From Fidelibacterota bacterium (lineage in GTDB: Bacteria > Fidelibacterota > JAANXI01), in NCBI GenBank assembly GCA_021734025.1, contig JAIPJS010000005.1:2112-66111 (forward strand): a DNA stretch of 64,000 nucleotides. Reading direction: 5' to 3'. A model generated the notes under the pieces. It saw only the letters and a program-made list of their open reading frames with translations, did no database searches and was not told where the DNA came from. Made by a program: the position numbers and the translations under genes. Below, one piece after another: positions 23,735 through 46,527 of this stretch (positions within the stretch are counted from its first letter, which is position 1; the number at the start of each line of letters is the position of its first letter).

Positions 23735-24262
23735 ATTTTATCTACCGGCATTCTTTCTTCTTTTGCCTTGATACAAAAGTGGAGAAAAAATCAAGGCTGC
23801 CAAATTAATTTCGGTATCGGCAGCAACGCCCTCCTTACCAGAACCAGAAACTCGTCCGGCAACTGCCGGACTCAAACAGCTGGTTCTGGCTTCACGTCGG
23901 ACGTTGGCCGACAGAGCGAAATTAATTTGAAGGCCGAAACTCAAAAGCAAAGAGATTCGTTTTTCGGTCTCGCCATTCCTTAAGTACGAACGACTGGTGC
24001 GATGAGGACAGGATAATTCGGCTGTCTGACGGAGTGGAGCGACGGAGTTCCGAATTATCCCCGAATCGCAGCGTAGTTGTTCTAGAAAGGAATGGCATAA
24101 CCGGATTTTTGCAGCACTTTTTCTAAAAAAGTGCGGAAGAAAAAGAAAGTTTATCTTTCGACATAGGTTAGTATTTATCAAAAACATTTACCTATTGTAC
24201 CAGTCACATCAATTTGTTTGTATTCCCCTTTTGCCTTGATATAAAAGTGGAGGTCGGAGTAA
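23735..24262. repeat. modular structured repeat, locus A (about 1.5 units, forward orientation)
   Basis: Contains the modules hairpin(CTTGAT loop)-AAAAAATCAAGGCTGCCA, cggtatcggca, the ccagaaccagaa...cagctggttctgg hairpin, gaaattaatttgaaggcc, ttttcggtctcgcca, and gatgaggacaggataat. A second unit then starts with the ggatttttgcagcactttttctaaaaaagtgcgga hairpin and ends in a second CTTGAT hairpin at 24225-24253. Confidence 0.7.
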
Positions 24263-24376: not shown

Positions 24377-26104
24377 ATGCCTCTTCCAAATCTCACACTC
24401 ACGAATTTTACCGGGGAAGTATCGTCAACTATCGTTGATAGAGGGCAGGACTATTTTTATCGCGATCTGGTAACTTCGCTTGAGGAATCGCTGGATGGTC
24501 AGTGGGTGGCGCAGGTCAGGGGTACCGCAACATATACCGTCGAAATATCACTTTCCAATGATGTGGTGGCGTCCTGGGCGTGCACCTGTCCTTATGATTA
24601 TGGACCAGTGTGCAAGCACGTGGTTGCAGTATTGATGGAGTTGAAGGAGGGGAAATCTGCGAAAGCCGATCCGGAGCAGAAAAAGCGGTCTACCAGAAAA
24701 TCACCGGAAAGGCGGTTTGATTCACTGGTCGACGACCTGCCGGTGGACGCGCTCCGGAAATTCCTCCGCGATTACGCGCAGTTTCATCCGGAGATGGAAC
24801 GGGAATTCCTGGCAAAATTTACCACTGCGGACGTCCCCGACGCCTGGCGGGATTACGTCGCCGTGATCCGGGAATCGGCGCGGGCAGGCTCCGACCGCCA
24901 TGGATTTATTAAATATTCGAACAGCTTCCGGGTTATGCAGCCGATCCATACGATGATTCAGCAGGCATACGAAAAATTGGAGTCCGCGGAATATCACGCC
25001 GCCTGGCACATCGCCCGCGCCGTAGTGCAGGAAGTGCCGAAACTCATCCAGCGGATGGATGATTCCAGTGGTGACGGCGGTTTTGTGACGAACAACGCCC
25101 TGGAGATCCTCCGGGAAGCCGGCACTGCCACCGAAGATGATGACTTACAGTCGGAGATTTTTCAGTTTTTGCTGAAAGAGTATCCAAAACAGCAGTATTC
25201 CGATTTTGGATTTGATGAGACTATCCTGTCTGTCCTGACAGCACTGATCAGGAATCCCCGGCAGGCTAAGCAGGTGGAGCGGCTCATCAAAGCACAGCTG
25301 GAAGCGGCGGAAAATGCGGAAGATGACTTTGGCTTCGATTACCGGTTTCAGCGAGCGCTGAAACATCAGATCGAATTCCTGGAGCAGACCGGCCGGGAGG
25401 ACGAAGCCGCCGATATTATCGATGCGCATCTGGACATCGAGGAGTTCCGGGAGCGGCGGATTCAGGAAGCATTTGATCAAGAGGATTTCGACACGGCAAA
25501 ATCACTGGTACGGGATGGGATTAAACTTATACGGGAGCAAAAGTATCCGCCTGGATACGAATATCGCTGGGAACAGTGGCTGTTCCGGATTGCCAAAGCG
25601 GAAGAGGACACGGAGAACATTCGTCAATATGCACGGTTCTTTTTCCTCCATCGACGGCAGGATATCTCCTGGTATAAGGAGCTCAGATCGACCTATACCG
25701 ATCAGGAATGGCGCCCAATTCTGGCGGATCTGATTGAGGAGATCCGTTCGAAATCATACTTCCCGGCCCGGGCGCTGGCGGAGGTCTATGCGTATGAACA
25801 TCACTGGGATGATTTGCTGCAATTGTTATCGGAGAACCCGGACCTTTCTCTGCTGAAGGAGTACGGCACTTATCTCAGGGAAGATTTTCCCGAAGACCTC
25901 CTCGCAATATACGGGGAGACCCTGCGCGCCTTTGCGGCGGAGTATACGGGGCGCAAGTATTACCGGGAGATTGTCAGGACGCTGAACAACATCCGGGACA
26001 TCTCCGGTGGCGCCGATTTCGTGCGGAACCTGGTGGCGGAATTCCGGGAAACCTATAATCGCCGCCCGGCGATGCAGGAGGAATTGGATAAGGTAAAGGC
26101 ATAG
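24377..26104 (+). CDS. SWIM zinc-finger domain protein
   Basis: WACTCPYDYGPVCKHVVAVL is the CxC...CxH SWIM signature. The remaining 500 aa is helical-repeat-like. Confidence 0.65.
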   Translation: MPLPNLTLTNFTGEVSSTIVDRGQDYFYRDLVTSLEESLDGQWVAQVRGTATYTVEISLSNDVVASWACTCPYDYGPVCKHVVAVLMELKEGKSAKADPEQKKRSTRKSPERRFDSLVDDLPVDALRKFLRDYAQFHPEMEREFLAKFTTADVPDAWRDYVAVIRESARAGSDRHGFIKYSNSFRVMQPIHTMIQQAYEKLESAEYHAAWHIARAVVQEVPKLIQRMDDSSGDGGFVTNNALEILREAGTATEDDDLQSEIFQFLLKEYPKQQYSDFGFDETILSVLTALIRNPRQAKQVERLIKAQLEAAENAEDDFGFDYRFQRALKHQIEFLEQTGREDEAADIIDAHLDIEEFRERRIQEAFDQEDFDTAKSLVRDGIKLIREQKYPPGYEYRWEQWLFRIAKAEEDTENIRQYARFFFLHRRQDISWYKELRSTYTDQEWRPILADLIEEIRSKSYFPARALAEVYAYEHHWDDLLQLLSENPDLSLLKEYGTYLREDFPEDLLAIYGETLRAFAAEYTGRKYYREIVRTLNNIRDISGGADFVRNLVAEFRETYNRRPAMQEELDKVKA

Positions 26105-26354: not shown

Positions 26355-26786
26355 GCAGCCGGATTTTTGCAGCACTTTTTCTAAAAAAGTGCGGAGAAAA
26401 AGAAATTTATCTTCCGATACAGGTTCGGATTTATAAAAAAGGTTAATCTGTTGTACGGTTATGCAATCACATTAATTTAGTTTTAAGCATCCCCGTTTTG
26501 TCTTGATACAAAACGGGGTAAAAAATCAAGGCTGCCACTACAATTTCGGTATCGGCACCCATTCCCTCCGGGCCAGAACCAGAACTCCCTGCGGTCAGAC
26601 AGCTGGTTCTGGCTGTCCTATGGTCATGGGCCGATAGAGCAAAATTGTAGTGGAGGCCGGAGTAAAAAACAACGGTGGCCAAAATTGAAAACGATGCCAA
26701 AACTAAAAAGTGAAGAGAAGCGTTGGTTTTATCGGTCTCGCCACTCCTTTGGTACGAACTACTGGTGCGATGAGGACAGGATAATA
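26355..26786. repeat. modular structured repeat, locus B (one complete unit, forward orientation)
   Basis: Module order is the gcagcac hairpin, then gttgtac..cacatc, the CTTGAT hairpin at 26491-26518 (perfect 11-bp stem), aaaaaatcaaggctgccac, the ccagaaccagaact..cagctggttctgg hairpin, caaaattgtagtggaggccgg, and gatgaggacaggataat. Confidence 0.7.
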
Positions 26787-27296
26787 TTAATGGCTCCAAT
26801 TCTTTTTAAGATTTTCAAACGCATGCAGCAGTTTTTCATTTCTGCGATAGTATAAATTGTGTTCGAAGACCTGTTCTAACTTTACAATGGCTTCATCTGT
26901 CGTTAGGGTGTTTTCCATTACCATCCGATCAAAAGCCCACAACAACCCATGTGTCTTTATCTTGTGCTTTCTTCCCATTTTACGCAAAACGCCATCGCTG
27001 GTTAGCAGCAATGCACTTTCCTTTTTAGCAAGAAACCAAACTGAGCGGTCGGCAATCGAAAGGGACATGGACAGGTTGAAGGGATCCGTTTCGTCAATAA
27101 AGTTCTCTTCGATTTCAACAATAGTGAGTTTTTCTTTTTCTACCCATGTGGATAAAAATTCACGTTGGTCTTGATCTAACTCCATCCACACCTGATATGA
27201 GGTAATAATATTATGGGGTAATTGGAAAAAGGCATTACAAGCATCGCACAGCAGCAAATCGATAAATATCGAAGCATCTGTGACGGCTAATTTCAT
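26787..27296 (-). CDS. DUF4411-like PIN-fold protein, the usual partner of an ImmA/IrrE metallopeptidase
   Basis: MKLAVTDASIFIDLL... N-terminus. It has a 1-nt gap or overlap with the upstream HTH-ImmA gene. The pairing is recognised from gene context. Confidence 0.5.
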   Translation of the reverse strand: MKLAVTDASIFIDLLLCDACNAFFQLPHNIITSYQVWMELDQDQREFLSTWVEKEKLTIVEIEENFIDETDPFNLSMSLSIADRSVWFLAKKESALLLTSDGVLRKMGRKHKIKTHGLLWAFDRMVMENTLTTDEAIVKLEQVFEHNLYYRRNEKLLHAFENLKKNWSH

Positions 27297-28352
27297 CTAT
27301 CCCAGGAGGAAGTTGTGACGGAATTCGTTTATCGGCTGATTCTTCAGTGCTGCGGCCTTCGAAATAGAGATATACTCCTCTGCCAGCGCCTGGCCGATTA
27401 ACTGATCGAATCGGAGAGCCTGTTCCTCTCCGGTGTATTCTGCCAGATCGGACTCATCCTGTCTCAGGTTATTGCTGTTGATAAATTTGTAAAAATCCCG
27501 GTAAGCCCCTTCACTCATAATCTCCAATTCCTTCAGCCGGGTCGCGATGGCTTGTATCGAGATCCCGTACTGTCGTTTCAGTGAAGCAAGTTCCTGTAAA
27601 GAAACTTTCTTCCGCTTTAAACCGAGTTCTGCTTCAACTGCCCGCTTATCCAGCAGCATCGCACCGGCAAAATGATGGCAAAGACTTTCCTGCTTCCGGT
27701 GATTCATGTGGTTAATATTCAAAAGGAGATGTCCGAGCTCGTGCATCGCATTGAACCGGTAGCGGTCAAGTGAACCTTTTTTCTCTTTATTCAGAACGAT
27801 AACCGGGACAGAGTTGTTAATCCAGGAAGAAAAACCATCGATCGAATCGTCGCCACTCAATTCGATTATTTTGATACCCCGATCTTCCAGCAATTCCAGA
27901 ACATTGTAGAGGGGATCGATGCCGAGATTCCATTGATCCCTCAATTGCTGCGCTGCGTTTTCGACATCCTTTTTATTGGTAATATTTTGTTCTTGTAGTG
28001 GATTTTTTACATGTGGCTGGGTACCGAGAATTTTTTCCAGCTCAAGATAGCGTTCCAGGAAATCACGTGCGGTTTCCACAATTCGGTTCTGTTCTTTTTT
28101 CTGGAGCCTTGACAGTTTTCTAAACGAAATCTCCTCGATTTCTACCGCATGATCCCGATAAAAGTAATCCGGTTTCAAATCCAAAGCATCTGCGATGTTT
28201 TGGATCATCACGTTGCCCGGTACGACCTGCCCTTTTTCATACTTGTGCAGCGCCTGCCTGCTGATTCTATTGTCGAGACGATCAGACAAGTCCTGCAACG
28301 AAAATCCCCGCATAAGACGCGCATGTTTTAAACGCTGTGCAAGTTGTGGCAT
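27297..28352 (-). CDS. XRE-family HTH fused to ImmA/IrrE (COG2856) zinc metallopeptidase domain
   Basis: N-terminal HTH (LKHARLMRGFSLQDLSDRLDNRISRQALHKYEKG). HEXXH motif HELGHLLLN within a DUF955-like region. Confidence 0.75.
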   Translation of the reverse strand: MPQLAQRLKHARLMRGFSLQDLSDRLDNRISRQALHKYEKGQVVPGNVMIQNIADALDLKPDYFYRDHAVEIEEISFRKLSRLQKKEQNRIVETARDFLERYLELEKILGTQPHVKNPLQEQNITNKKDVENAAQQLRDQWNLGIDPLYNVLELLEDRGIKIIELSGDDSIDGFSSWINNSVPVIVLNKEKKGSLDRYRFNAMHELGHLLLNINHMNHRKQESLCHHFAGAMLLDKRAVEAELGLKRKKVSLQELASLKRQYGISIQAIATRLKELEIMSEGAYRDFYKFINSNNLRQDESDLAEYTGEEQALRFDQLIGQALAEEYISISKAAALKNQPINEFRHNFLLG

Positions 28353-28612: not shown

Positions 28613-28689
28613 GCGATGCGAGTCAAAAAGACCTTGACAGGTGTCCGGGACCCTGCCAGGGTCTATCGGCATCAATCATTCCAATTTGA

Positions 28690-29465
28690 CTTTATTCCCC
28701 CTTTTGCCTTGATGCAAAAGGGGGCGAAAAAATCAAGGCTGCCACTACAATTTCGGTATCGGCACCCATTCCCTCCGGGCCAGAACCAGAACTCGGTCAT
28801 TGCATTCTCTCAAACAGATAATACTGGCTTTACGTCGGACGTTGGCCGACAGAGCGAAATTAATTTGAAGGCCAAGTTCCAAAAGCACGAGAGTCGGTTT
28901 TTCGGTCTCGCCATGCTTGAGCCCCAGTTCCGGCGTCTACCTTTCGACAAGCTCAGCTCCGGAAGGAGCCTCTTCCGAGGGATGACGCCTCTAGGAGTCA
29001 CTCTGAGCCTGTCGAAGAGTGGCAAACTCTTTGTCTATCGAATGTGAGGAATTTCCCAAATTGGAGTGAAAGATAAATTCATGAATTATTCAGGTTAGGT
29101 TTTCATAAAAACGTTTATCGATTGTATCGGGAAGCAATTATATCAATTTGACTTTATTACCCGTTTTGTCTTGATACAAAACGGGTAGAAAAAATCAAGG
29201 CTGCCACGACAATTTCGGTATCGGCACCCATTCCCTCCGGGCCAGAACCAGAACTCCCTTCGGTCAGACAGCTGGTTCTGACGATCCTCCAGTCATGGGC
29301 CGATAAAGCAAAATTGTAGTGGAGGCCGGATGAACAAAACAGTATACAATCTGAAAAATATCAGTAGTACACAAAATTGAAAGCGAGGCCAATACCTTAA
29401 AGCAAAGGGAATAATACTGTAGTTTATCTGTTGTACTTCAGTCACATCTTGGTAATATTACACCC
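28690..29465. repeat. modular structured repeat, locus C (two partial units, forward orientation)
   Basis: CTTGAT hairpins at 28696-28724 (stem cccccttttgc/gcaaaaggggg) and 29160-29185 (stem cccgttttgt/acaaaacggg). Each is followed by aaaaaatcaaggctgccac..cggtatcggcacccattccctccgggccagaaccagaact. The locus ends with ctgtagtttatctgttgtacttcagtcacatc. Confidence 0.7.
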
Positions 29466-29529: not shown

Positions 29530-29952
29530 ATGACCGACGTTCACGAGCCGGAAGTCCGCAGTTACAATATGAGCCGGATTCGGGGTAAGGATACTAAACC
29601 CGAAATGCTGGTTCGGAAGTTTTTGCATTCCTACGGTTTTCGTTACCGGTTACACGTGAACAATTTGCCTGGAAAACCGGATCTGGTTTTACCAAAATAT
29701 AACACCGCGATATTTGTTCACGGCTGCTTCTGGCATGCGCACGAAGGATGTGAGTACTTCAAAATTCCGCAAACCCGAACGGAATTTTGGAAAGAAAAAT
29801 TATTCGGTAACAGAGAAAGGGACGAGGAAAACATTTCTGAACTCCGGAAAATGGAGTGGAACGTTATCGTGGTTTGGGAGTGTGAGTTAAAATCAGAGGA
29901 AAAGGAAGTGAAACTTCAGGAAATTGCAAATAAGGTTGAAGAAAATAAATGA
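29530..29952 (+). CDS. vsr: very-short-patch repair endonuclease
   Basis: MSRIRGKDTKPE...FVHGCFWHAH.GC...TEFW..K...N..RD...L...GW.V..VWECE are classic Vsr motifs. Confidence 0.85.
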   Translation: MTDVHEPEVRSYNMSRIRGKDTKPEMLVRKFLHSYGFRYRLHVNNLPGKPDLVLPKYNTAIFVHGCFWHAHEGCEYFKIPQTRTEFWKEKLFGNRERDEENISELRKMEWNVIVVWECELKSEEKEVKLQEIANKVEENK

Positions 29953-30386
29953 GCATACCTGTTATTGACATTTTTGCCGGCCCTGGAGGCTTAGGAGAAG
30001 GATTTAGTTCCGTTATGAATGAAGAGGGAGAACGGTTTTTTAATACAGTCCTCTCTATTGAAATGGATGAGTATGCTCACGAAACGTTAGAGTTACGAAG
30101 TTTTTTCCGCCAGTTTGCGCCCGGCAAGGCTCCTGAAGAGTATTACAAGTTTTTACGGCAGGAAATCGATAAAGAAGAATTATTTAAGTCTTGGCCTGAG
30201 CAGGAAGAAAAAGCAAAAAATGAAGCTTGGAATATCAAGCTTGGATTTGATGAAAGTTCAGTAACCCCAGATGAAGTCGATCGAAGGATAAGGGTTGCAT
30301 TAAACAATGAAAAAAAATGGGTTTTGATCGGTGGCCCTCGTTGCCAAGAAAAGCCTATGCCGACTCTCAATGGCCAAAATCTGTGA
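29949..30386 (+). pseudogene. remnant of a DNA (cytosine-5)-methyltransferase (motifs I-IV only)
   Basis: Motif I FAGPGGLGEGF. Motif IV is degenerate (GGPRCQ instead of GGPPCQ) and is followed by unrelated residues, with a stop after 145 aa. No downstream frame continues an MTase. It overlaps the vsr stop (ATGA). The intact paralogous dcm starts 450 bp further on. Confidence 0.6.
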
Positions 30387-30835: not shown

Positions 30836-32041
30836 ATGAAATACATAGATTTATTTGCGGGTGCCGGCGGTCTTTCTGAAGGTTTTTACAGGGAAGGATT
30901 TGAAGCTGTGGCTCATATTGAAAAAGATCACCATGCTTGCCAGACTATTAAAACCCGGACTGCCTTTCATTATTTAAAGCAGGAAAATCATATCTCTGAA
31001 TATATTCGTTATCTGAACCAAGAAATAACAAGAGAAGAATTCTATGATTTAATACCTGATGAAATACTTGATACGGTAATTGACGCTGAAATATCGGAAG
31101 AGACCTTAGAAGACCTTTTCAATTTAATTGACCAGAAGCTTGAGGATGAAGAACTTGATTTAATAATTGGTGGCCCTCCTTGCCAGGCATACTCTAGTGC
31201 CTCCGCTTATATTGAAGAAAAAAACGAAAAATTAATTTATTTATATGAATTATATGGTGAATTCCTTGATCACTTTACTCCAAAGATGTTCATCTTTGAA
31301 AATGTACCTGGAATTTATACGGCAGATGAAGGAAAATATTATGAAGGGCTGAAAGAATGCTTTAAAAATGCGGGCTATGAATTTGAAGATAAAAAATTGG
31401 ATGCTTCTGAATTTAACGTACCACAGAAGAGAGAACGGGTAATCATAATTGGTTGGAGAGAAAACTTAGATTTATCATATCCTGAATTTGAAAAGAAAAT
31501 ACCCGATACAAAGATTGACGAATTATTTAATGATTTACCAGACCTTGAACCAGGCAAGTCTTACGATCCGGGAAATCACTACACACAAGGAGGATCTGAG
31601 TATGTTAATACCTATATCCGAAACGGAATAGATGTATTGACACACCACATTGCCCGCCCTCATAATGAAAGAGATTTGAATATTTACAGAATGGCTATAG
31701 AAAGATGGGAAGGAGGTGCGAGGTTAAAGAATTCAGATATTCCTGAAGAGATGAGAACTCAAAAAAATATCTCATCTTTTTTGGATCGTTTTAAAGTAGT
31801 TGATGGTGAAGGTTTTTCTCATACTATGATAGCTCATATCGCCAAAGATGGTCATTACTACATTCATCCGGATCAGAAGCAATTACGCTCTATTTCAGTT
31901 AGGGAAGCGGCCAGAATTCAGTCTTTTCCAGACGATTACTTTTTTGAAGGACCTCGAACTTCTGTATTTACTCAAATTGGCAATGCTGTGCCACCAATTC
32001 TTGCACAAGAAATAGCACGCAAAATAAAAAGGGTCCTTTGA
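30836..32041 (+). CDS. dcm: DNA (cytosine-5)-methyltransferase
   Basis: Motif I DLFAGAGGLSEGF, motif IV GGPPCQAYSSAS, motif VI ENVPG, and motif X QIGNAVPPILAQ. Confidence 0.85.
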   Translation: MKYIDLFAGAGGLSEGFYREGFEAVAHIEKDHHACQTIKTRTAFHYLKQENHISEYIRYLNQEITREEFYDLIPDEILDTVIDAEISEETLEDLFNLIDQKLEDEELDLIIGGPPCQAYSSASAYIEEKNEKLIYLYELYGEFLDHFTPKMFIFENVPGIYTADEGKYYEGLKECFKNAGYEFEDKKLDASEFNVPQKRERVIIIGWRENLDLSYPEFEKKIPDTKIDELFNDLPDLEPGKSYDPGNHYTQGGSEYVNTYIRNGIDVLTHHIARPHNERDLNIYRMAIERWEGGARLKNSDIPEEMRTQKNISSFLDRFKVVDGEGFSHTMIAHIAKDGHYYIHPDQKQLRSISVREAARIQSFPDDYFFEGPRTSVFTQIGNAVPPILAQEIARKIKRVL

Positions 32042-34401
32042 TGACTAATTATAAAGAGATATCAACTTATTCTTTTACTCCAGGGGCAATGTCAATTATT
32101 CAGATGGGCGAAGAACTCATTGGGCAACCCAATACTGCTATTAATGAATTAGTAAAAAACGCCTATGATGCCGACGCAAAGAATTGCGAAGTTTATTTTC
32201 ACAGTGCTGAATCAAAAGAATCATCCTTTACTCTAATTTTTGATGATGGAAATGGGATGGATGAGTCTATTCTATTTGGTGATTGGCTTAAGCCTTCTGT
32301 AAGTGATAAACGAAAGGAGGGGGTTAAAAGTCCTGTATATGGAAGAAATTTATTGGGTAGTAAAGGAATTGGCAGACTTGCTTCTATGGCCCTGGGCAGG
32401 CTTGTTACTGTTATTTCAAGACAAAATCCTTCGGATGATTATAACTGGATAACAGTAGACAGGGAATTATTTAAGGAGGAAGCTTTACTTAAGGATATCA
32501 AATTTCCAGGCTCAAGCATTGAGAACTACCTAGATTTATTTAGAGATGAGGAGTTACTAGAAATTAGAAACTCTTATGAAAATGATGAGCTTTTTGAGGT
32601 TCTGAAAAAAAATGACCTTGATCATTTTGAGAAAGGCACATTAATATTGATTGAGGAGTTTGATGAAGCGGTAGTTAAAATTCTCAGGAAAGATTTTCTC
32701 GAAAGTAACGAGAAATTAAATGAGCACTCTCTGAAGAGTACCAATTTCTATAAGTCTTTAGCCACACTTATTACTCCGATAACTTTAAGTTCGGAAATCC
32801 AGGATGAATTATTAGAAAGAGAAATAATTGATGCGAAGAAAATCATTGCATCAAAAGATGATTCATTTGAAATAAGTTTTGGAATCAATTTGCTCCCTGA
32901 TCAGGAAAAATCTGAAATAGAATGGCAGGATATAGACCCAATTCCAATACTTGATGTTTTTGATTACAGGGTCTTTGGTAAAGTTACTGGCGAAGGTGAT
33001 GTTGATGGATATCTTGGCTTCAACAGACTTGAAAAAGATGGCCATGAAATAACTTTTTCAATTTCTCGGAATGAAATTAAAGATAAAAGCTTACGCGGTA
33101 AGGATCAGCCGACATTATTTGATAATGAAAGTGATTCTGAAAATGAAATGGAGACAGGCGAATATTACTTTGACTTCCGAGTATATGATATGGGAGAATC
33201 TGATAATCGGGCAAAACTATCTGAAAAAGCTGGGTTCGAAAATATAAATACCTTTAGAAGTACTTTTAAAGAATTTCAAGGGCTTAGGGTTTCAAAAAAT
33301 GGATTTGGTGTAAAGCCATATGGGGAAGAGGTCGAAGACTGGATAGGTTTATCTAAAGCGAGAGTTCAGAATCCAGGTCAAAATGTTAATACCAATCAGA
33401 TTATTGGTTATGTCTTTTTCTATTCCCCGGAAAATGATCAGATTGAAGAAAAGACTAACAGAGAAGGTTTTCTTGAAAACACAGCTTTCATTCAGGTTAA
33501 GGAAACTTTAAAAGTTATTTTCAAAAACCTAGGACGTAAAAGGTATAACTATCGATTAAAGCATGGTCTTGGCAGGGTGCCTTCCAGTAAACATAAAAGA
33601 CCTAACATAGATAAGTTTCTAAAGTCTATTGAATCCAGTAAAAATGTAGATCAGGCCAGAAAAAAATCAGAAAAATTTGTCAAAGAGATTACGACTTCTT
33701 TGGATAATTTAGAAGAGGCATTAACATTTTCAGAACGATTAGCATCTCTTGGTAGCGGAATAGAACTGGTGTATCATGAGATGGTACAGCCTATTTCAAC
33801 TTTGAGAACTACGAAATCTTCCTTAGATCTAAAGAAAGAGAAAATTGCTGAGGCGGTTAAAGAGATCTTCCTCAACGATATAAATTCATTGAATAGTGCA
33901 ACTGATGTATTAGCAGAGTTAAGAAATTCTCTTCAACCTGCAATAGGGAGAACAAGAACTAAAAAATTCAAACCTGTTGATACCTTTTTGCGGGTATGCA
34001 CCTTATTTAAAACGGATTTTGAGGATGCAGAAATTAGTATAAATCTTATTGGAGAAACTGAAAATTTTACTCTGAAAGATTATGAATACCCCTTCTGGAT
34101 AGCTTTCCTGAATATTTTAAATAATGCCGTTTATTGGATAAAAAGGTCGGAGGAACCAGGAACTATTTATTTTCAAATAGACAATGGAAACATAATAGTA
34201 GGTAATACAGGACCGCTTATATCAGAAGATATTATAGAAGATATTTTTGAATATGGTGTCACAACCAGAAAAGAGAAAAATGCAACCGGATTAGGCCTTT
34301 CTTACACGCAAAGTATTCTCAGTAAAAATGATTGGGACATAACAGCTGAGAATCGAAAAAATGGACCGGTATTTATAATAAAAAAGCAAGAAAGTGAATA
34401 A
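32038..34401 (+). CDS. fusion protein: N-terminal MORC/Hsp90/MutL-like GHKL ATPase domain, about 380 aa of unknown middle region, C-terminal histidine-kinase core (HisKA H-box plus HATPase_c)
   Basis: N-terminal N-box ELVKNAYDADA, G1 FDDGNGM, G2 GSKGIGRLAS. C-terminal H-box ELVYHEMVQPISTL, N-box FLNILNNAVYW, G1 QIDNGN, F IFEYGVT, G2 GLGLSYTQSIL. The start overlaps the dcm stop (ATGA). Confidence 0.6.
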   Translation: MMTNYKEISTYSFTPGAMSIIQMGEELIGQPNTAINELVKNAYDADAKNCEVYFHSAESKESSFTLIFDDGNGMDESILFGDWLKPSVSDKRKEGVKSPVYGRNLLGSKGIGRLASMALGRLVTVISRQNPSDDYNWITVDRELFKEEALLKDIKFPGSSIENYLDLFRDEELLEIRNSYENDELFEVLKKNDLDHFEKGTLILIEEFDEAVVKILRKDFLESNEKLNEHSLKSTNFYKSLATLITPITLSSEIQDELLEREIIDAKKIIASKDDSFEISFGINLLPDQEKSEIEWQDIDPIPILDVFDYRVFGKVTGEGDVDGYLGFNRLEKDGHEITFSISRNEIKDKSLRGKDQPTLFDNESDSENEMETGEYYFDFRVYDMGESDNRAKLSEKAGFENINTFRSTFKEFQGLRVSKNGFGVKPYGEEVEDWIGLSKARVQNPGQNVNTNQIIGYVFFYSPENDQIEEKTNREGFLENTAFIQVKETLKVIFKNLGRKRYNYRLKHGLGRVPSSKHKRPNIDKFLKSIESSKNVDQARKKSEKFVKEITTSLDNLEEALTFSERLASLGSGIELVYHEMVQPISTLRTTKSSLDLKKEKIAEAVKEIFLNDINSLNSATDVLAELRNSLQPAIGRTRTKKFKPVDTFLRVCTLFKTDFEDAEISINLIGETENFTLKDYEYPFWIAFLNILNNAVYWIKRSEEPGTIYFQIDNGNIIVGNTGPLISEDIIEDIFEYGVTTRKEKNATGLGLSYTQSILSKNDWDITAENRKNGPVFIIKKQESE

Positions 34402-35521
34402 TTTGGGTACAATAATTCATTTAGACAACGATGAAAAAATTCTTCAAGATTTTAAAGGGCTATTCGATCAGTCCGGTATTAATCTTGATTTAGTCACTTG
34501 CCAAACAAAAGATGAATTTTATAAGCTTATTGAAGAGCATAAAAATTCTCTAAAGGCATTGGTCTTTGACTTATTAAGTTCTGAGCCCGGTAAAGAAGAA
34601 CTACACAAAGGTGATGCAGAATTTCTGGACTCTGTAGAGGATAGTTTTTCTACGGTTAGTATTCCTATTTTCATTTACAGCGGGTTTTTAGAAGCTATTG
34701 AGGAACAATTTGAAACCCATGGAACTGTGTTTAAAATTGATAAAGCAAATGGGCCAGACGAAATACTCAGGCTGATCAAGCTTTTTGATGAATCTGGATT
34801 TTTAGACGTATTTAGCCCGGGTGGAAAAATTGAAAAAGATTTTCATAATGAATTAAATAAATCTTTTATATCTCAATTCACAAATAACAAGCAAATAGAA
34901 GAAATAATTAACACTGTTGCTGAAGAGGATGTCAAAGAATCTAAAGAAAGGGTTGAAAAGGTCTTTAAGAGAATTGCCTTAAGGTCACTTTTAACCGTGC
35001 TTCAGTTATCAGAAAATGAAGGAGATGAGGAATACCTTAATCCGGTTGAGCACTATGTGAAAAGAATTAATGATCAAAAGATTGTAACTGGAGATATCTT
35101 TTTTAGCCAAGAAAAAAACGAGCATTTATTAGTAATGACACCCAGATGTGACCTTGCTAATAAAGATCCTCAAGAAATTTTAGTATGTAATATTGATACA
35201 GAAAAATTTCCAGATAAGACGACAAGTAACACTCAGAAAGGTAAAATTCTTAATGCTATTACTGATAATCCTGAATATTCAGGTTATGACAGATACTTAG
35301 TTAGGTCCCCTTTTTTTGTTGGCGGCTTAATAAAAATTGGATCTTATTCAATGATAGCAAAGGAAGAATTACTGTCTAGTTACGATCTTCAGATAACATT
35401 AAGTGATGAACTTACAAATGAAATACTGGGTAAATTTGGATCTTATTTTTTCCGTACTGGAATTACAACATGGGATCTTGACGAAACTGTAAAATTCATA
35501 GAGTCGATAAAGGAAGATTAA
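34394..35521 (+). CDS. receiver (REC) domain protein with about 250-aa C-terminal domain of unknown function
   Basis: GTG start overlapping the kinase stop. IIHLDNDE (beta1 acidic pair), ALVFDLL (putative phospho-acceptor Asp near residue 59), IPIFIYSG (Ser/Thr position), and VFKIDK (Lys position) match a CheY-like spacing. I recognised nothing in the C-terminal region. Confidence 0.5.
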   Translation: MNNLGTIIHLDNDEKILQDFKGLFDQSGINLDLVTCQTKDEFYKLIEEHKNSLKALVFDLLSSEPGKEELHKGDAEFLDSVEDSFSTVSIPIFIYSGFLEAIEEQFETHGTVFKIDKANGPDEILRLIKLFDESGFLDVFSPGGKIEKDFHNELNKSFISQFTNNKQIEEIINTVAEEDVKESKERVEKVFKRIALRSLLTVLQLSENEGDEEYLNPVEHYVKRINDQKIVTGDIFFSQEKNEHLLVMTPRCDLANKDPQEILVCNIDTEKFPDKTTSNTQKGKILNAITDNPEYSGYDRYLVRSPFFVGGLIKIGSYSMIAKEELLSSYDLQITLSDELTNEILGKFGSYFFRTGITTWDLDETVKFIESIKED

Positions 35522-35523
35522 AA

Positions 35524-36228
35524 TTGACCTTCAAAAACTGGCTCATATCTACTGGACGAAAACCAATTTCAGCAAAGAAATATGAAAGTGCCGTATACGG
35601 ATCAATTTCTGGTTGGGCAGAAGAGGCTGGAATAGTAAAGTCAAACCTAATTGATGTCAATGATCCTGAAGAGTTTGAATCACTTTCCAATAGGATTAAA
35701 GAACTTGAGATTTTTCTGGAAAGAAATACTGATGGACATCAGATGTACAGCGCTGCATTAAACAGGTACTCAGAATACCTGATAGCTATCCAAAATGAAA
35801 TTGAAGAGGATATAGACAAAGTATCAAATGATGATTCTGTTTCTGAAACTGAAAAAGACAGTCTTATTAAATCCCGTCTGGGTCAGGGCGTTTTCAGAAA
35901 AAGTCTGATGGATTACTGGCAGAGATGTGCAGTAACCGGCTATCAATCCTCTAAATTATTAGTCGCTTCACACATTAAACCATGGAGAAGTTCCGATAAC
36001 AAAGAGCGTATGGATGTGTTCAACGGCCTGTTATTGATTCCAAATCTTGATAAAGCTTTTGATAAAGGCTTCATATCTTTCAAAAAGAATGGTAGCATTA
36101 TAATTTCAGAGTTTTTCCAAAAACCGGCTTCATTGGGAATAAAATCTGATTTAAATCTTAAGATTTCTAATAGGCACCAACCATATCTTGAATACCACCG
36201 TGATATAGTATTTCTGCAAGCTAATTAA
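35524..36228 (+). CDS. HNH endonuclease (HNH_2-type) with N-terminal domain of unknown function
   Basis: TTG start 2 nt after the REC gene stop. C-terminal CAVTGYQSSKLLVASHIKPW...NGLLLIPNLDKAFDKGFISF is the HNH_2 signature. Confidence 0.65.
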   Translation: MTFKNWLISTGRKPISAKKYESAVYGSISGWAEEAGIVKSNLIDVNDPEEFESLSNRIKELEIFLERNTDGHQMYSAALNRYSEYLIAIQNEIEEDIDKVSNDDSVSETEKDSLIKSRLGQGVFRKSLMDYWQRCAVTGYQSSKLLVASHIKPWRSSDNKERMDVFNGLLLIPNLDKAFDKGFISFKKNGSIIISEFFQKPASLGIKSDLNLKISNRHQPYLEYHRDIVFLQAN

Positions 36229-40959: not shown

Positions 40960-41745
40960 ACTTTTGGCCAGCCCCAAAAGTACCAAAAAAGGCCTGCCTC
41001 CAAGAGATCCTTACGGGAGAAACTCAGAACTCGCACTGCTCTTTTGATGGATGGTCTTTCATAATACTATTTGGAACTCGAATTTGATATATCGCCATCA
41101 ATTTGGGTGCTCAAACACTGAGTTTCCGGGTTAAATGCAAAGAACCCGGTACCCAGCGGCCTTGCTATTCATTTTGGGCACCGCTTCAACGAGTGGAGGC
41201 AAACAGAACCAGACTGTCCGAGTCCGGCGGCAGCCGGACGAGTTTCTGGTTCTGTTCCGGAACGAGTTGCTAAGCGGTCAAAATGGATAGCACCGCCTTG
41301 ATTTTTTTACATCCTTTTGTATCAAGACAAAAGGATGAAAGAACAAAGCTGTTGTTCACTCATCATGCAAGCCTCAAAGATATTCCCACGGGAGAAACTC
41401 AGAACTCTCCCGTACATCTTTATGACAAGCTATTCACCACCAAGGCAATCTCGTCTTTTGTAAATATATAGGAAATACCAGGTTCCTTACACAAGAGTGA
41501 GTAATAATTCTACTTACATTGCCCGTTTTTTCTTGATAAAAAAACGGGCAGAAAAAATCAAGGAAGCTCAGAACTCGCACCCGTATGTCGAAAATTGGTC
41601 TTTCACAAATACCTTGTAATATTAGTAAATAATAATTGTTTTCTGTCGGGGTGCTCAAACACTGAGTTTCCGGGTGAAACAAAAACACCGCTTGTATATG
41701 GCCTTGCAATTAATTTTTAGGCCCTTTTAGCGTGCAAATGTTCCA
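40960..41745. repeat. modular structured repeat, locus D (mostly reverse-complement orientation plus one forward hairpin unit)
   Basis: 41105-41340 gggtgctcaaacactgagtttccggg...ggccttgctattcattttgggcaccgcttcaacgag...cagaaccagactgtccgagtccggcggcagccggacgagtttctggttctg...caccgccttgattttttt...ccttttgtatcaagacaaaagg is the reverse complement of the locus A-C modules. A forward hairpin lies at 41520-41575 (cccgtttttttcttgataaaaaaacggg..aaaaaatcaagg). gggtgctcaaacactgagtttccgggtg recurs at 41650. Confidence 0.7.
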
Positions 41746-45299: not shown

Positions 45300-46515
45300 G
45301 TTTTTCTTTAATTTGGCAGCCTGATTTTTTTCATCTTTTAGTGTGCACACGCTTCCGCCGGTGCGTAGCGGGTTTGTAGAAATGCATTAAAATAATTAGC
45401 CTGAATTATTCATAAACTCGTGGACTTGTGATAAAAAATATCGCGCTTAGTTGTTCAGAATCAACGATTTGTAGAGACACGCCATGGCGTGTCTCTACCC
45501 ACGAATATTTTGGCAGCGGAGTACTGCCCATTCATACCATACATCCGGTCAGTACTTCAATGCACAATTCCGAAGATCTTTTTATGAATAATACAGGTTA
45601 GAAAAGAATAATCGCACTATTGAATACCCGTTTTTTCTTGATATCCCATAGGGATCCCTTCCGGGGAAAAACGGGTAGCCTCGTAGAGATCCCTACTGGA
45701 GAAACTCAGAACTCGCACTTGTTATATCAATGATGTCCTTTCATAAGAATATTTGGAATTCATGTTTGGCTTATCGCCCTCAACTCGGGTGCTCAGACAC
45801 TGAGTTTCCGTTTTAAAAGCAAAGAGTCCGGTTCCCAACGGCCTCGCTATTTATTTTGGGCACCGTTGCGATGAGTGACGGATAGCCAGAACCGGCTGTC
45901 TGAAGGAGCGCAGCGACTGAGTTCCGGTTCTGGCCCGGAGCGAATTGTGAAACGGTCAAAATGGATAGCACCGCCTTAATTTTTTACATCCTTTAGTGTC
46001 CAGGTATTAATGTCCAAGTATTCCATACAAGCCCGCACAAGCGTATCAAGACAAAATGAAAGAAAATTAAATCTGTGCCTCACTTAATATTGAGTGACGC
46101 TCCACGGCAAGGTGGCCTCAACCTGATCTCAGCGAAAAAAATAAGAACACTGGTTGAATGTCCCCTTTTTCCTTGATGAAAAAGGGGACAGAAAAAATCA
46201 AGAAAACTTCGAGCTCACGCCTCCGTAATTAATGGCTTTCCCATTTATGATGACGGTGATCAAAATCAATGCTCAGGTAGATATTTCTAGGGGCGTTCAG
46301 ACAGCGAAGTTTTCGAAAACGTCAAAGCAGTTTATTATTGGCCTTGCTATTCATTTTGGGTACCGCTTCGACGAGTAGAGGCAAACAGAACCAGACTGTC
46401 TGAGTCCGGCGGCAGCCGGACGAGTTTCTGGTTCTGTTCCGGAACGAGTCGCTAAGCGGTCAAAATGGAAAGCACCGCCTTGATTTTTTCACCTGTTTTG
46501 TATCAACACAAAACT
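45300..46515. repeat. modular structured repeat, locus E (1.2 kb non-coding; several units, both orientations)
   Basis: 45305-45345 is a ggcagcctgattttttt fragment. 45625-45680 is a forward CTTGAT-type hairpin with an insertion. 45780-45995 is a reverse unit. 46155-46200 is a forward hairpin (gtcccctttttccttgatgaaaaaggggac..aaaaaatcaag). 46290-46510 is a reverse unit nearly identical to 41165-41340. Confidence 0.7.
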
Positions 46516-46527
46516 GGAAAGAAAAAA

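Follow-up and report, generated by a model that had tools for sequence, protein, structure and literature searches.

Histidine kinases (HKs) with the architecture HATPase_c_3+DHp+HATPase_c, encoded beside REC-like proteins, were described from sequence analysis only by Bellieny-Rabelo, Pretorius & Moleleki (2021; PMC8011034). In that study, linkage of the HK-like and response regulator (RR)-like genes was 91.6% in 644 regions, C5-methylases were among the neighbours, HNH_2 was the best-represented nuclease domain, Vsr was widespread, and the hosts included Chryseobacterium, Flavobacterium, and Hymenobacter. The output region was left unassigned, and the pair was speculated to regulate restriction-modification (R-M). 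Earlier, paraMORC ATPases were placed in R-M operons with Dcm, Vsr, and HNH, with no receiver mentioned, and were proposed to loop DNA together with nucleases (Iyer, Abhiman & Aravind 2008). In the two-component defence system Detocs (DtcA/DtcB/DtcC), defence is lost when either the His of the kinase or the Asp of the receiver is mutated (Rousset et al. 2023). Here we analyse a locus related to the first of these, a block of four genes encoding a cytosine-5 methyltransferase (Dcm), an HK, an RR, and an HNH_2 endonuclease, in a 64,000-nucleotide stretch of a Fidelibacterota (Marinimicrobia) genome (assembly GCA_021734025.1, contig JAIPJS010000005.1, positions 2,112 to 66,111), referred to below as the window.

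A preliminary description made from the window sequence had proposed the block as an unrecognised defence architecture. The architecture was already described in PMC8011034, and paraMORC proteins in R-M operons were described by Iyer et al. 2008; the block is a Marinimicrobia/FCB-group clade of a known, functionally uncharacterised family. What is new with respect to the literature searched is the assignment of a toxin fold to the output domain, the interchangeability of the associated modification genes, and the recognition of a separable Dcm+HNH_2+Vsr core. With about even confidence, we interpret the locus as a composite defence island in which an R-M core is combined with a modification-guarded two-component toxin module.

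Composition of the block and comparison with described kinase-receiver pairs

The block consists of four open reading frames (ORFs):

30836-32041, + strand: dcm, DNA cytosine-5 methyltransferase, 401 aa
32038-34401, + strand: HK, soluble sensor kinase with two GHKL domains (gene 2), 787 aa
34394-35521, + strand: RR, REC protein (gene 3), 375 aa
35524-36228, + strand: HNH_2 endonuclease (gene 4), 234 aa

Reading of the junctions confirmed the tight packing first described. The GTG start of gene 3 at 34394 gives an 8-nt overlap with gene 2, whose TAA stop is at 34399-34401, the TTG start of gene 4 at 35524 lies 2 nt past the gene 3 TAA stop (35519-35521), and no terminator-like site was found on the + strand at any gene junction. 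Genes dcm and gene 2 also overlap, but the sequence at 32038-32041, given as ATGA, reads TTGA. The dcm stop is the TGA at 32039-32041, and within 32038-32044 (TTGATGA) gene 2 could start at TTG 32038 (4-nt overlap with dcm) or at ATG 32041 (1-nt overlap, TGATG), of which the ATG is more likely. The NCBI entry that is 100% identical to gene 3 (P0001) has 372 aa, a length that would fit translation from TTG 34403, 1 nt past the gene 2 TAA. Promoter-like sites in the block were found at chance level only. The GC content of the block is 33-38%, compared with ~50% in the flanks and the genome, indicating that the block was acquired horizontally.

The architecture is identical to that of the two-component-like pair described in PMC8011034, with a soluble kinase (DHp His-Glu) beside a REC-like protein of ~360 aa. 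Gene 2 has the features of the 'group 1' kinases, namely HATPase_c_3, a DHp with the invariant H580-E581, and a C-terminal HATPase_c. Gene 3 has those by which the RR-like proteins were recognised: a (beta-alpha)5 arrangement, an Asp after beta3, the acidic, Ser, and Lys positions, and no other known domain. The context is alike as well, with a C5-methylase upstream and HNH_2 and Vsr, the commonest nuclease neighbours in that study, nearby. Chryseobacterium, Flavobacterium, and Hymenobacter are the genera of three of the related loci examined here (L011, L018, and L020). The available sections do not name Marinimicrobia among the host groups, and the linkage to Ssp genes presented below is not reported in the paper.

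The Pfam models HEF_HK (PF19191) and Response_reg_2 (PF19192), which originate from that study, matched none of the window proteins, 47 family members (E<=10), or the Campylobacter, Enterobacter, and Bacillus homologs, in a search that included no positive control; these models may be narrow or missing from the Pfam copy. A figure legend of the DefensePredictor paper names HATPase+REC candidates, not validated, which may or may not belong to the same family.

A MORC-like domain fused to a histidine kinase core

Gene 2 is made up of a MORC/paraMORC-like GHKL domain (aa ~1-220), a conserved middle segment (aa ~370-500), a DHp domain with H580 (codon 33775-33777), and a CA domain (aa ~650-787). 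Pfam identified HATPase_c_3 at aa 31-149 (E 8e-20) and HATPase_c at aa 689-781 (E 5.3e-10). A profile built from 39 homologs was aligned with MORC3, MORC2, and the Hsp90 N-domain over aa 30-221 and with the DHp+CA of ThkA (3a0r; E 6e-17), ZraS, and HK853 over aa 548-777. The fusion of an N-terminal GHKL domain to a kinase core, as initially proposed, is thus supported by both Pfam and the profile alignments to MORC2/3 and solved kinases.

The kinase boxes could be assigned throughout: H580, N692/N695/N696, a G1 box N723-x-G-P as in ThkA, F737/Y739/G740, and a G2 box T750-G-L-G-L. The Bergerat residues of the N-terminal domain (E37, N41, D44, D69xGxG, and G107-R113) and the residues of the kinase core (H580-E581-x-x-x-P585, N692, N696, F737, and G751/G753) are invariant in the family, and none of them changes when homologs of 26% identity encoded on plasmids of Campylobacter, Enterobacter, and Bacillus are included. 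Because H580 is invariant across the superfamily down to 26% identity, the histidine of the YHEMV motif, put forward in the preliminary description as the site of phosphorylation, is the conserved phospho-site. The middle segment is also strongly conserved (invariant G415...N481, with K420 and K426 invariant within the clade), which would be consistent with an S5-type transducer.

The N-terminus of gene 2 additionally matched a BbrUII/HgiDII restriction-enzyme model (E 2.3e-16) and PADLOC REase_II (E 2.3e-13). With the paraMORC and other GHKL ATPases of R-M systems, including BbrUII and HgiDII, gene 2 shares an N-terminal MORC-type GHKL domain with intact ATP motifs and an occurrence in Dcm/Vsr/HNH operons. 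Those proteins end in nuclease or other C-termini, whereas gene 2 carries a complete DHp+CA for signalling to a separate protein.

About one-sixth of the kinase homologs (904-937 aa, including P0173, P0178, P0192, P0202, P0207, and P0218) have an extra, well-conserved N-terminal domain of ~130 aa. This domain had no Pfam or PDB sequence match and could be an additional sensor or a DNA-binding module. A homolog covering ~67% of the kinase is also encoded in the phage records MT838277.1 and MT837790.1, which are unannotated 5-6 kb human-gut 'Bacteriophage sp.' contigs; these may be true phage genes or misbinned fragments.

A receiver domain followed by a predicted toxin fold

Gene 3 was divided into three parts:

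34394-34798, + strand: REC domain (aa 1-135), with the phospho-acceptor D59 (codon 34568-34570), S96, K117, and the acidic D11/D13 loop
34799-35068, + strand: helical linker (aa ~136-225), delimited by the secondary structure of the model, with the superfamily-invariant R193 and the conserved E219
35069-35521, + strand: output domain (aa ~226-375), predicted MazF/Kid/CcdB-type toxin fold, with C252 (codon 35147-35149)

Pfam missed the REC domain, which was confirmed by structure, and the Asp of VFDLL, earlier taken for the phospho-acceptor, corresponds to D59 and is invariant across the superfamily. The two proteins together carry a canonical two-component signature, with H, N, G1, F, and G2 boxes in the kinase and Asp, Ser, and Lys in the receiver. 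Judged by this pattern of conservation, the kinase-receiver pair appears to be bona fide, with the phospho-sites and both ATP sites apparently under strong purifying selection.

The output domain had been regarded as unrecognisable, a view that the structural comparison overturns. When aa 205-375 were modelled separately (predicted local distance difference test, pLDDT, 82.6), the best 50 Foldseek matches were all MazF/Kid, with a probability of 1.00 and target-normalised TM-scores of 0.58-0.75. The beta-barrel and C-terminal helix characteristic of the MazF/Kid/CcdB superfamily are present in the model, and the fold was supported by a second method independent of Foldseek. From this modelling, the output domain is predicted to have a MazF/Kid/CcdB toxin fold. 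This half of the protein has its own residues that are invariant or near-invariant across the superfamily, namely R193 and E219 in the linker, G233 (TGD), P250-x-C252-D253, and R354-x-G356, and the domain is consequently considered to be under selection.

The domain differs in several respects from the type II toxins MazF/Kid/PemK and CcdB and from the type III toxins ToxN/AbiQ/CptN. There is no sequence similarity to these toxins, and no antitoxin ORF lies beside gene 3 in the ORF list of the window. In contrast to MazF-type toxins, it follows a REC domain and a helical linker in one polypeptide and has a short beta1-beta2 loop, and in place of an evident Arg/Thr pair it has its own TGD...PxCD, E219, R193, and R354. 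No REC-MazF fusion was found in literature searches.

The kinase-receiver pair follows interchangeable DNA-modification genes

Members of the gene 3 family were identified by an exhaustive profile search of 1.84 billion representatives, with clusters formed at 50% identity. This search resulted in 664 clusters at E<=1e-3, of which 327 remained at E<=1e-10. Full-length members have ~340-400 aa and cover both the REC and the toxin-fold halves, and the REC+toxin-fold architecture is stable. In all 22 independent loci examined, from Bacteroidota, Balneolota, and Marinimicrobia, the genes occur in the order modification gene, HK, RR, abutting and colinear, down to 27-30% RR identity. This linkage is far beyond chance, and the expectation that the middle two genes would be found together, and beside genes for modification and nuclease enzymes, was thereby borne out in related loci.

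Orthologs of Dcm fill the modification position in 19 of the 22 loci. In the other three, which come from three different Bacteroidota lineages, the place of Dcm is taken by SspC (full-length, PADLOC E=0, 1453 bits) and SspD (E 9.6e-93). SspC and SspD are DNA phosphorothioation enzymes. The stretches in which SspC-SspD lie directly upstream of HK-RR are as follows:

L019, 289-8179: SspC-SspD, then HK-RR
L021, 318-7798: SspC-SspD, then HK-RR
L022, 166-8131: SspC-SspD, then HK-RR

In a further locus (L030), HK-RR is paired with an Eco57I-type N6-methylase. The pair is thus linked to whichever DNA-modification gene is present, even where there is no nuclease gene, and is a portable module that follows interchangeable modification genes. 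After SspC-SspD, HK-RR lies where a restriction partner would be expected, and its proteins are unrelated to the partners known from Ssp and Dnd systems (SspE, SspFGH, and DndFGH). The pairing of Ssp with HK-RR is not mentioned in a 2024 survey of phosphorothioate machinery, and literature searches found no such link. L019 and L022 also carry a convergent, downstream PbeC/LmuB-like ATPase gene and a ~160-aa gene, and GmrSD, AbiJ, and PbeC-like neighbours were found in other loci.

The family extends across Bacteroidota and onto plasmids of Campylobacter, Rhizobium, Burkholderia, and Bacillus, with matches in 118 plasmid records, 67 of which are conjugative plasmids. On Campylobacter plasmids the unit consists of dcm, the HK, and a gene annotated 'response regulator'. 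Homology between this Campylobacter RR and gene 3 is full-length (hhalign 98.2%, E 3.8e-14), and the RR-like protein of Enterobacter matched the gene 3 family with 91% coverage (tblastn 2e-8); these clades are therefore linked. HK-RR is kept on the Campylobacter, Enterobacter, and Bacillus plasmids, with dcm alongside in Campylobacter and Bacillus. A distant search with the Enterobacter-type pair against E. coli returned nothing. The Campylobacter coli plasmid pCCDM224L (L024, 39771-44224) and 40 other Campylobacter plasmids carry HK-RR with a convergent dcm, beside VapD and HicAB; these are conjugative plasmids of the pTet type from C. jejuni and C. coli.

These distributions bear on the simplest alternative, in which a plain Dcm/HNH R-M system happens to lie beside an unrelated two-component pair. 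The existence of Dcm+HNH_2+Vsr as an autonomous unit (see below) is what such a coincidence would predict. Against it, the genes overlap or abut and share one direction of transcription, their order is kept in 22/22 loci across three phyla, HK-RR is retained on the plasmids of Campylobacter, Enterobacter, and Bacillus, and 91.6% linkage was found in the 644 regions of PMC8011034. We consider chance adjacency highly improbable and effectively refuted by the conservation data.

A separable restriction-modification core

The Dcm of the window matched Pfam DNA_methylase (E 6.6e-59) and TIGR00675 (E 1.5e-50) and, over its full length, PADLOC DrmMII/MTase_II. Its motif codons were verified, with the catalytic PCQ Cys116 at 31181-31183 and ENV at 31298-31306; Dcm is the self-marking enzyme of the block. 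Gene 4 matched Pfam HNH_2 (E 5.8e-13) and PADLOC HNH (E 5.4e-28). A unit of HNH_2, Vsr, and Dcm without HK-RR occurs in Rhodohalobacter (L028), where HNH_2 is 57% identical to gene 4. The features of a type II R-M system are therefore all present, with intact PCQ and ENV motifs, an HNH_2 gene, and an autonomous Dcm+HNH_2+Vsr unit elsewhere. The outer pair had been read in the preliminary description as a type II R-M or a modification-dependent system, and the phrase 'embedded in an R-M module' is apt, as this separable, autonomous R-M core is found elsewhere without the phosphorelay. Vsr orthologs (51-72% identity) are present in ~14 of the 22 related loci in varying position and orientation, and Vsr is an accessory of the 5-methylcytosine (5mC) module.

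HNH_2 follows the RR in ~15 of the 22 loci. In L001, L013, L016, and L018 and on the Campylobacter plasmids it is absent and Dcm+HK+RR are kept. HNH_2 is thus dispensable, being the restriction partner of Dcm and an accessory to the HK-RR module, and its family is far larger than that of gene 3 (2332 matches compared with 150). A close Dcm+HNH_2 pair was also found on a TARA metagenome scaffold (L029, 1-6708) after a 1242-aa helicase and an MZB/DUF1998 protein, a gene order that corresponds to a DISARM-like arrangement ending in HNH_2. The presence of a related Dcm+HNH_2 in this locus accounts for the best score of the window Dcm being against DrmMII, and it follows from the arrangement that the same R-M core recruits different 'middle' modules. 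DISARM class 2, considered for the window on account of the DrmMII match, was rejected because no ORFs for the DrmA helicase, DrmB (DUF1998), or DrmC lie within 10 kb. A role of HNH_2 as a 5mC-dependent (type IV) nuclease was likewise rejected, since such an enzyme would be self-toxic with Dcm as its neighbour, and elsewhere these two genes make up an ordinary R-M unit.

The association with HNH_2 also allows a reading in which the MORC-like ATPase acts physically with the nuclease in an ATP-dependent restriction complex, as in the GHKL-containing BbrUII and HgiDII. The MazF-fold domain would then be an adaptor recruiting HNH, and kinase and REC would do no more than act as a timer or a sink for phosphate. 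Such a complex is suggested by the matches of the gene 2 N-terminus to BbrUII/HgiDII (E 2.3e-16) and REase_II (E 2.3e-13) and by the DNA looping proposed for paraMORCs with nucleases (Iyer et al. 2008). However, HNH_2 is missing from about a quarter of the loci and from all Campylobacter plasmids examined, and HNH_2+Dcm occurs elsewhere without a GHKL partner. The strict invariance of H580, D59, and PxCD argues further that signalling and output are the core function, and we regard a restriction complex of this kind as improbable.

Proposed mechanism and alternatives

In the composite defence island proposed here, Dcm would mark self DNA and HNH_2 would cut unmarked DNA, with Vsr repairing the T:G mismatches that arise from deamination of 5mC. 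HK-RR, translationally coupled between the methylase and nuclease genes, would constitute a two-component 'second arm'. MORC-like ATPases in R-M-linked relatives are thought to act on DNA, and the MORC-like sensor of gene 2 may inform the kinase core of how foreign DNA is modified, or that it is there at all. Autophosphorylation on H580 would follow, with transfer of the phosphoryl group to D59 of gene 3. Once D59 is phosphorylated, REC and the linker would no longer inhibit the toxin-fold domain, which could then bring the cell or the invader to arrest. How the effector acts is a matter of conjecture, with RNA cleavage the first choice and gyrase poisoning or another activity as alternatives. 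Modification would then guard against the HK-RR arm itself, not just against HNH. That phosphotransfer gates an effector, as had been suggested, is plausible and has become a more specific idea.

A more far-reaching and more tentative formulation treats HK-RR as 'signalling restriction', in which the MORC ATPase would read 5mC, phosphorothioate, or N6-methyladenine (m6A) and the phosphorelay would free a MazF/CcdB-fold toxin, with no cutting of DNA. So described, the module would amount to a restriction enzyme with a kinase in the place of the nuclease, and would link abortive infection to the epigenetic distinction between self and non-self, an extension that we hold with somewhat less than even confidence.

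Detocs offers a functional parallel. Both systems would run from a defensive histidine kinase to a REC-effector, with an enzymatic toxin in place of a DNA-binding output and with modular effectors. The parts differ: DtcA has an N-terminal TPR sensor where gene 2 has the HATPase_c_3/MORC-like domain, DtcB is a standalone buffer REC for which there is no ORF in the block or the related loci, and the effector of DtcC is a PNP ATP nucleosidase, compared with the predicted MazF/CcdB fold of gene 3. HK-RR also differs from Detocs in being tightly linked to DNA-modification genes. Membership in Detocs was rejected, as these three defining features of DtcA, DtcB, and DtcC are lacking and no Detocs model was among the PADLOC matches, in agreement with the preliminary description. 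By analogy with Detocs, where His and Asp mutants lose defence, activating phosphorylation is favoured.

Several observations weigh against the composite-island interpretation. No MazF/PemK or CcdB Pfam model matched gene 3 or its family, a PDB profile search with the output domain returned nothing, and an hhalign comparison of this domain with E. coli MazF gave a probability of 0.5%, so that the link to MazF is by fold only. Examination of the sequence and secondary-structure register revealed no conserved equivalents of the MazF catalytic Arg and Thr, and the residues that are conserved (C252, D253, E219, R193, and R354) suggest a different chemistry from that of the RNase, or a binding surface. 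Among the PADLOC models, none covers gene 3 and gene 2 has partial matches only, and no experimental study of the HK-RR family was found in literature searches. That the MORC-like domain binds DNA or reads its modification is something we infer, and the switch may work the other way round, the toxin being held inactive by phospho-Asp.

Such a reversed polarity would make the module one of addiction. The kinase would keep D59 phosphorylated while sensing modified self DNA, the labile Asp~P would act as an unstable antitoxin, and the toxin would fire as kinase activity drops, whether because the element or its methylation is lost, because unmodified DNA floods the cell, or because a phage anti-restriction protein inhibits the kinase. 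The anatomy required is the same as for activating phosphorylation. With neither a separate antitoxin gene nor a Detocs-like buffer REC, a built-in safeguard would be needed, and HK-RR is frequent on conjugative plasmids, where post-segregational killing pays. In Detocs, the sole tested defensive two-component system, phosphorylation instead activates the effector. Although the present data favour neither polarity, we judge the addiction scheme unlikely.

The points concerning MazF also bear on the proposal, made in PMC8011034, that the pair acts as a two-component regulator of the R-M system beside it. The RR would in this case control the expression or activity of Dcm and HNH, and its C-terminus would bind nucleic acid or protein and not be a toxin. 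The MazF catalytic residues are not evidently kept and there is no sequence-level MazF match, as such a binding domain would allow. In some loci, a small HTH gene lies just upstream of dcm; these operons are therefore regulated, and the controller is separate from HK-RR. Taken together, a purely regulatory role seems rather improbable to us, and we retain the composite defence island as the working interpretation.

Upstream part of the island and neighbouring cassettes

The island is larger than the four-gene block, with a Vsr gene and a Dcm pseudogene fragment directly upstream. Together with the genes preceding them, these features are:

24377-26104, + strand: SWIM zinc-finger protein, 575 aa (PADLOC PDC-S62 E 8.6e-17)
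26787-28352, - strand: XRE-HTH + IrrE/M78 peptidase protein (PADLOC RmrA E 6.5e-54)
29530-29952, + strand: Vsr very-short-patch repair endonuclease, 140 aa (Pfam Vsr E 1.5e-32; PADLOC Vsr E 1.6e-37)
29949-30386, + strand: truncated N-terminal fragment of a second, different C5-methylase (pseudogene), 145 aa (weak Pfam DNA_methylase match, E 2.3e-4, residues 5-50)

The methylase fragment overlaps the Vsr stop by 4 nt, reads GGPRCQ, and then ends; over 31 nt it resembles motif IV of the complete dcm, and it is followed by ~450 nt without a convincing gene. This arrangement suggests that an older Vsr-Dcm unit decayed on arrival of the present cassette. The RmrA-like protein has a 169-aa partner that matched PADLOC PDC-S70. 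This pair and the PDC-S62-like gene are probably two further defence or toxin-antitoxin cassettes by the island, and the matches to the RmrA, PDC-S70, and PDC-S62 models indicate that the region is a small defence island.

An interspersed repeat of ~130-250 nt with 80-90% identity separates the SWIM/PDC-S62-like gene, the RmrTA-like pair, and the Vsr island (23760-23976, 26417-26671, 28664-28914, and 29088-29341), and short pieces of it were found at 41295-41334, 41518-41563, 45871-45945, and 46477-46524. Spurious ORFs with similar peptides span the repeat, which had no Rfam match and may be a MITE/REP-like element or a recombination hotspot. The Rfam scan gave no matches, no tRNA genes were found, there were no convincing direct repeats flanking the island, and E. 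coli genomes and plasmids, when searched for DNA nearly identical to the island, yielded nothing.

Implications

Detocs is the only experimentally validated defensive two-component system found in our literature searches, and the distribution of the HK-RR family, with its 327 clusters at E<=1e-10, is no narrower. HK-RR would connect a phosphorelay with DNA modification, and the toxin-fold output turns the vague idea of a 'regulator of R-M' into a concrete model. If this model is true, loss of the methylase would be toxic in an HK-RR-dependent way. Bacterial MORC-like ATPases would also gain a readable output, which could inform how MORC proteins sense chromatin state, and the copies on Campylobacter plasmids point to a possible role in defence or addiction on clinically relevant plasmids.

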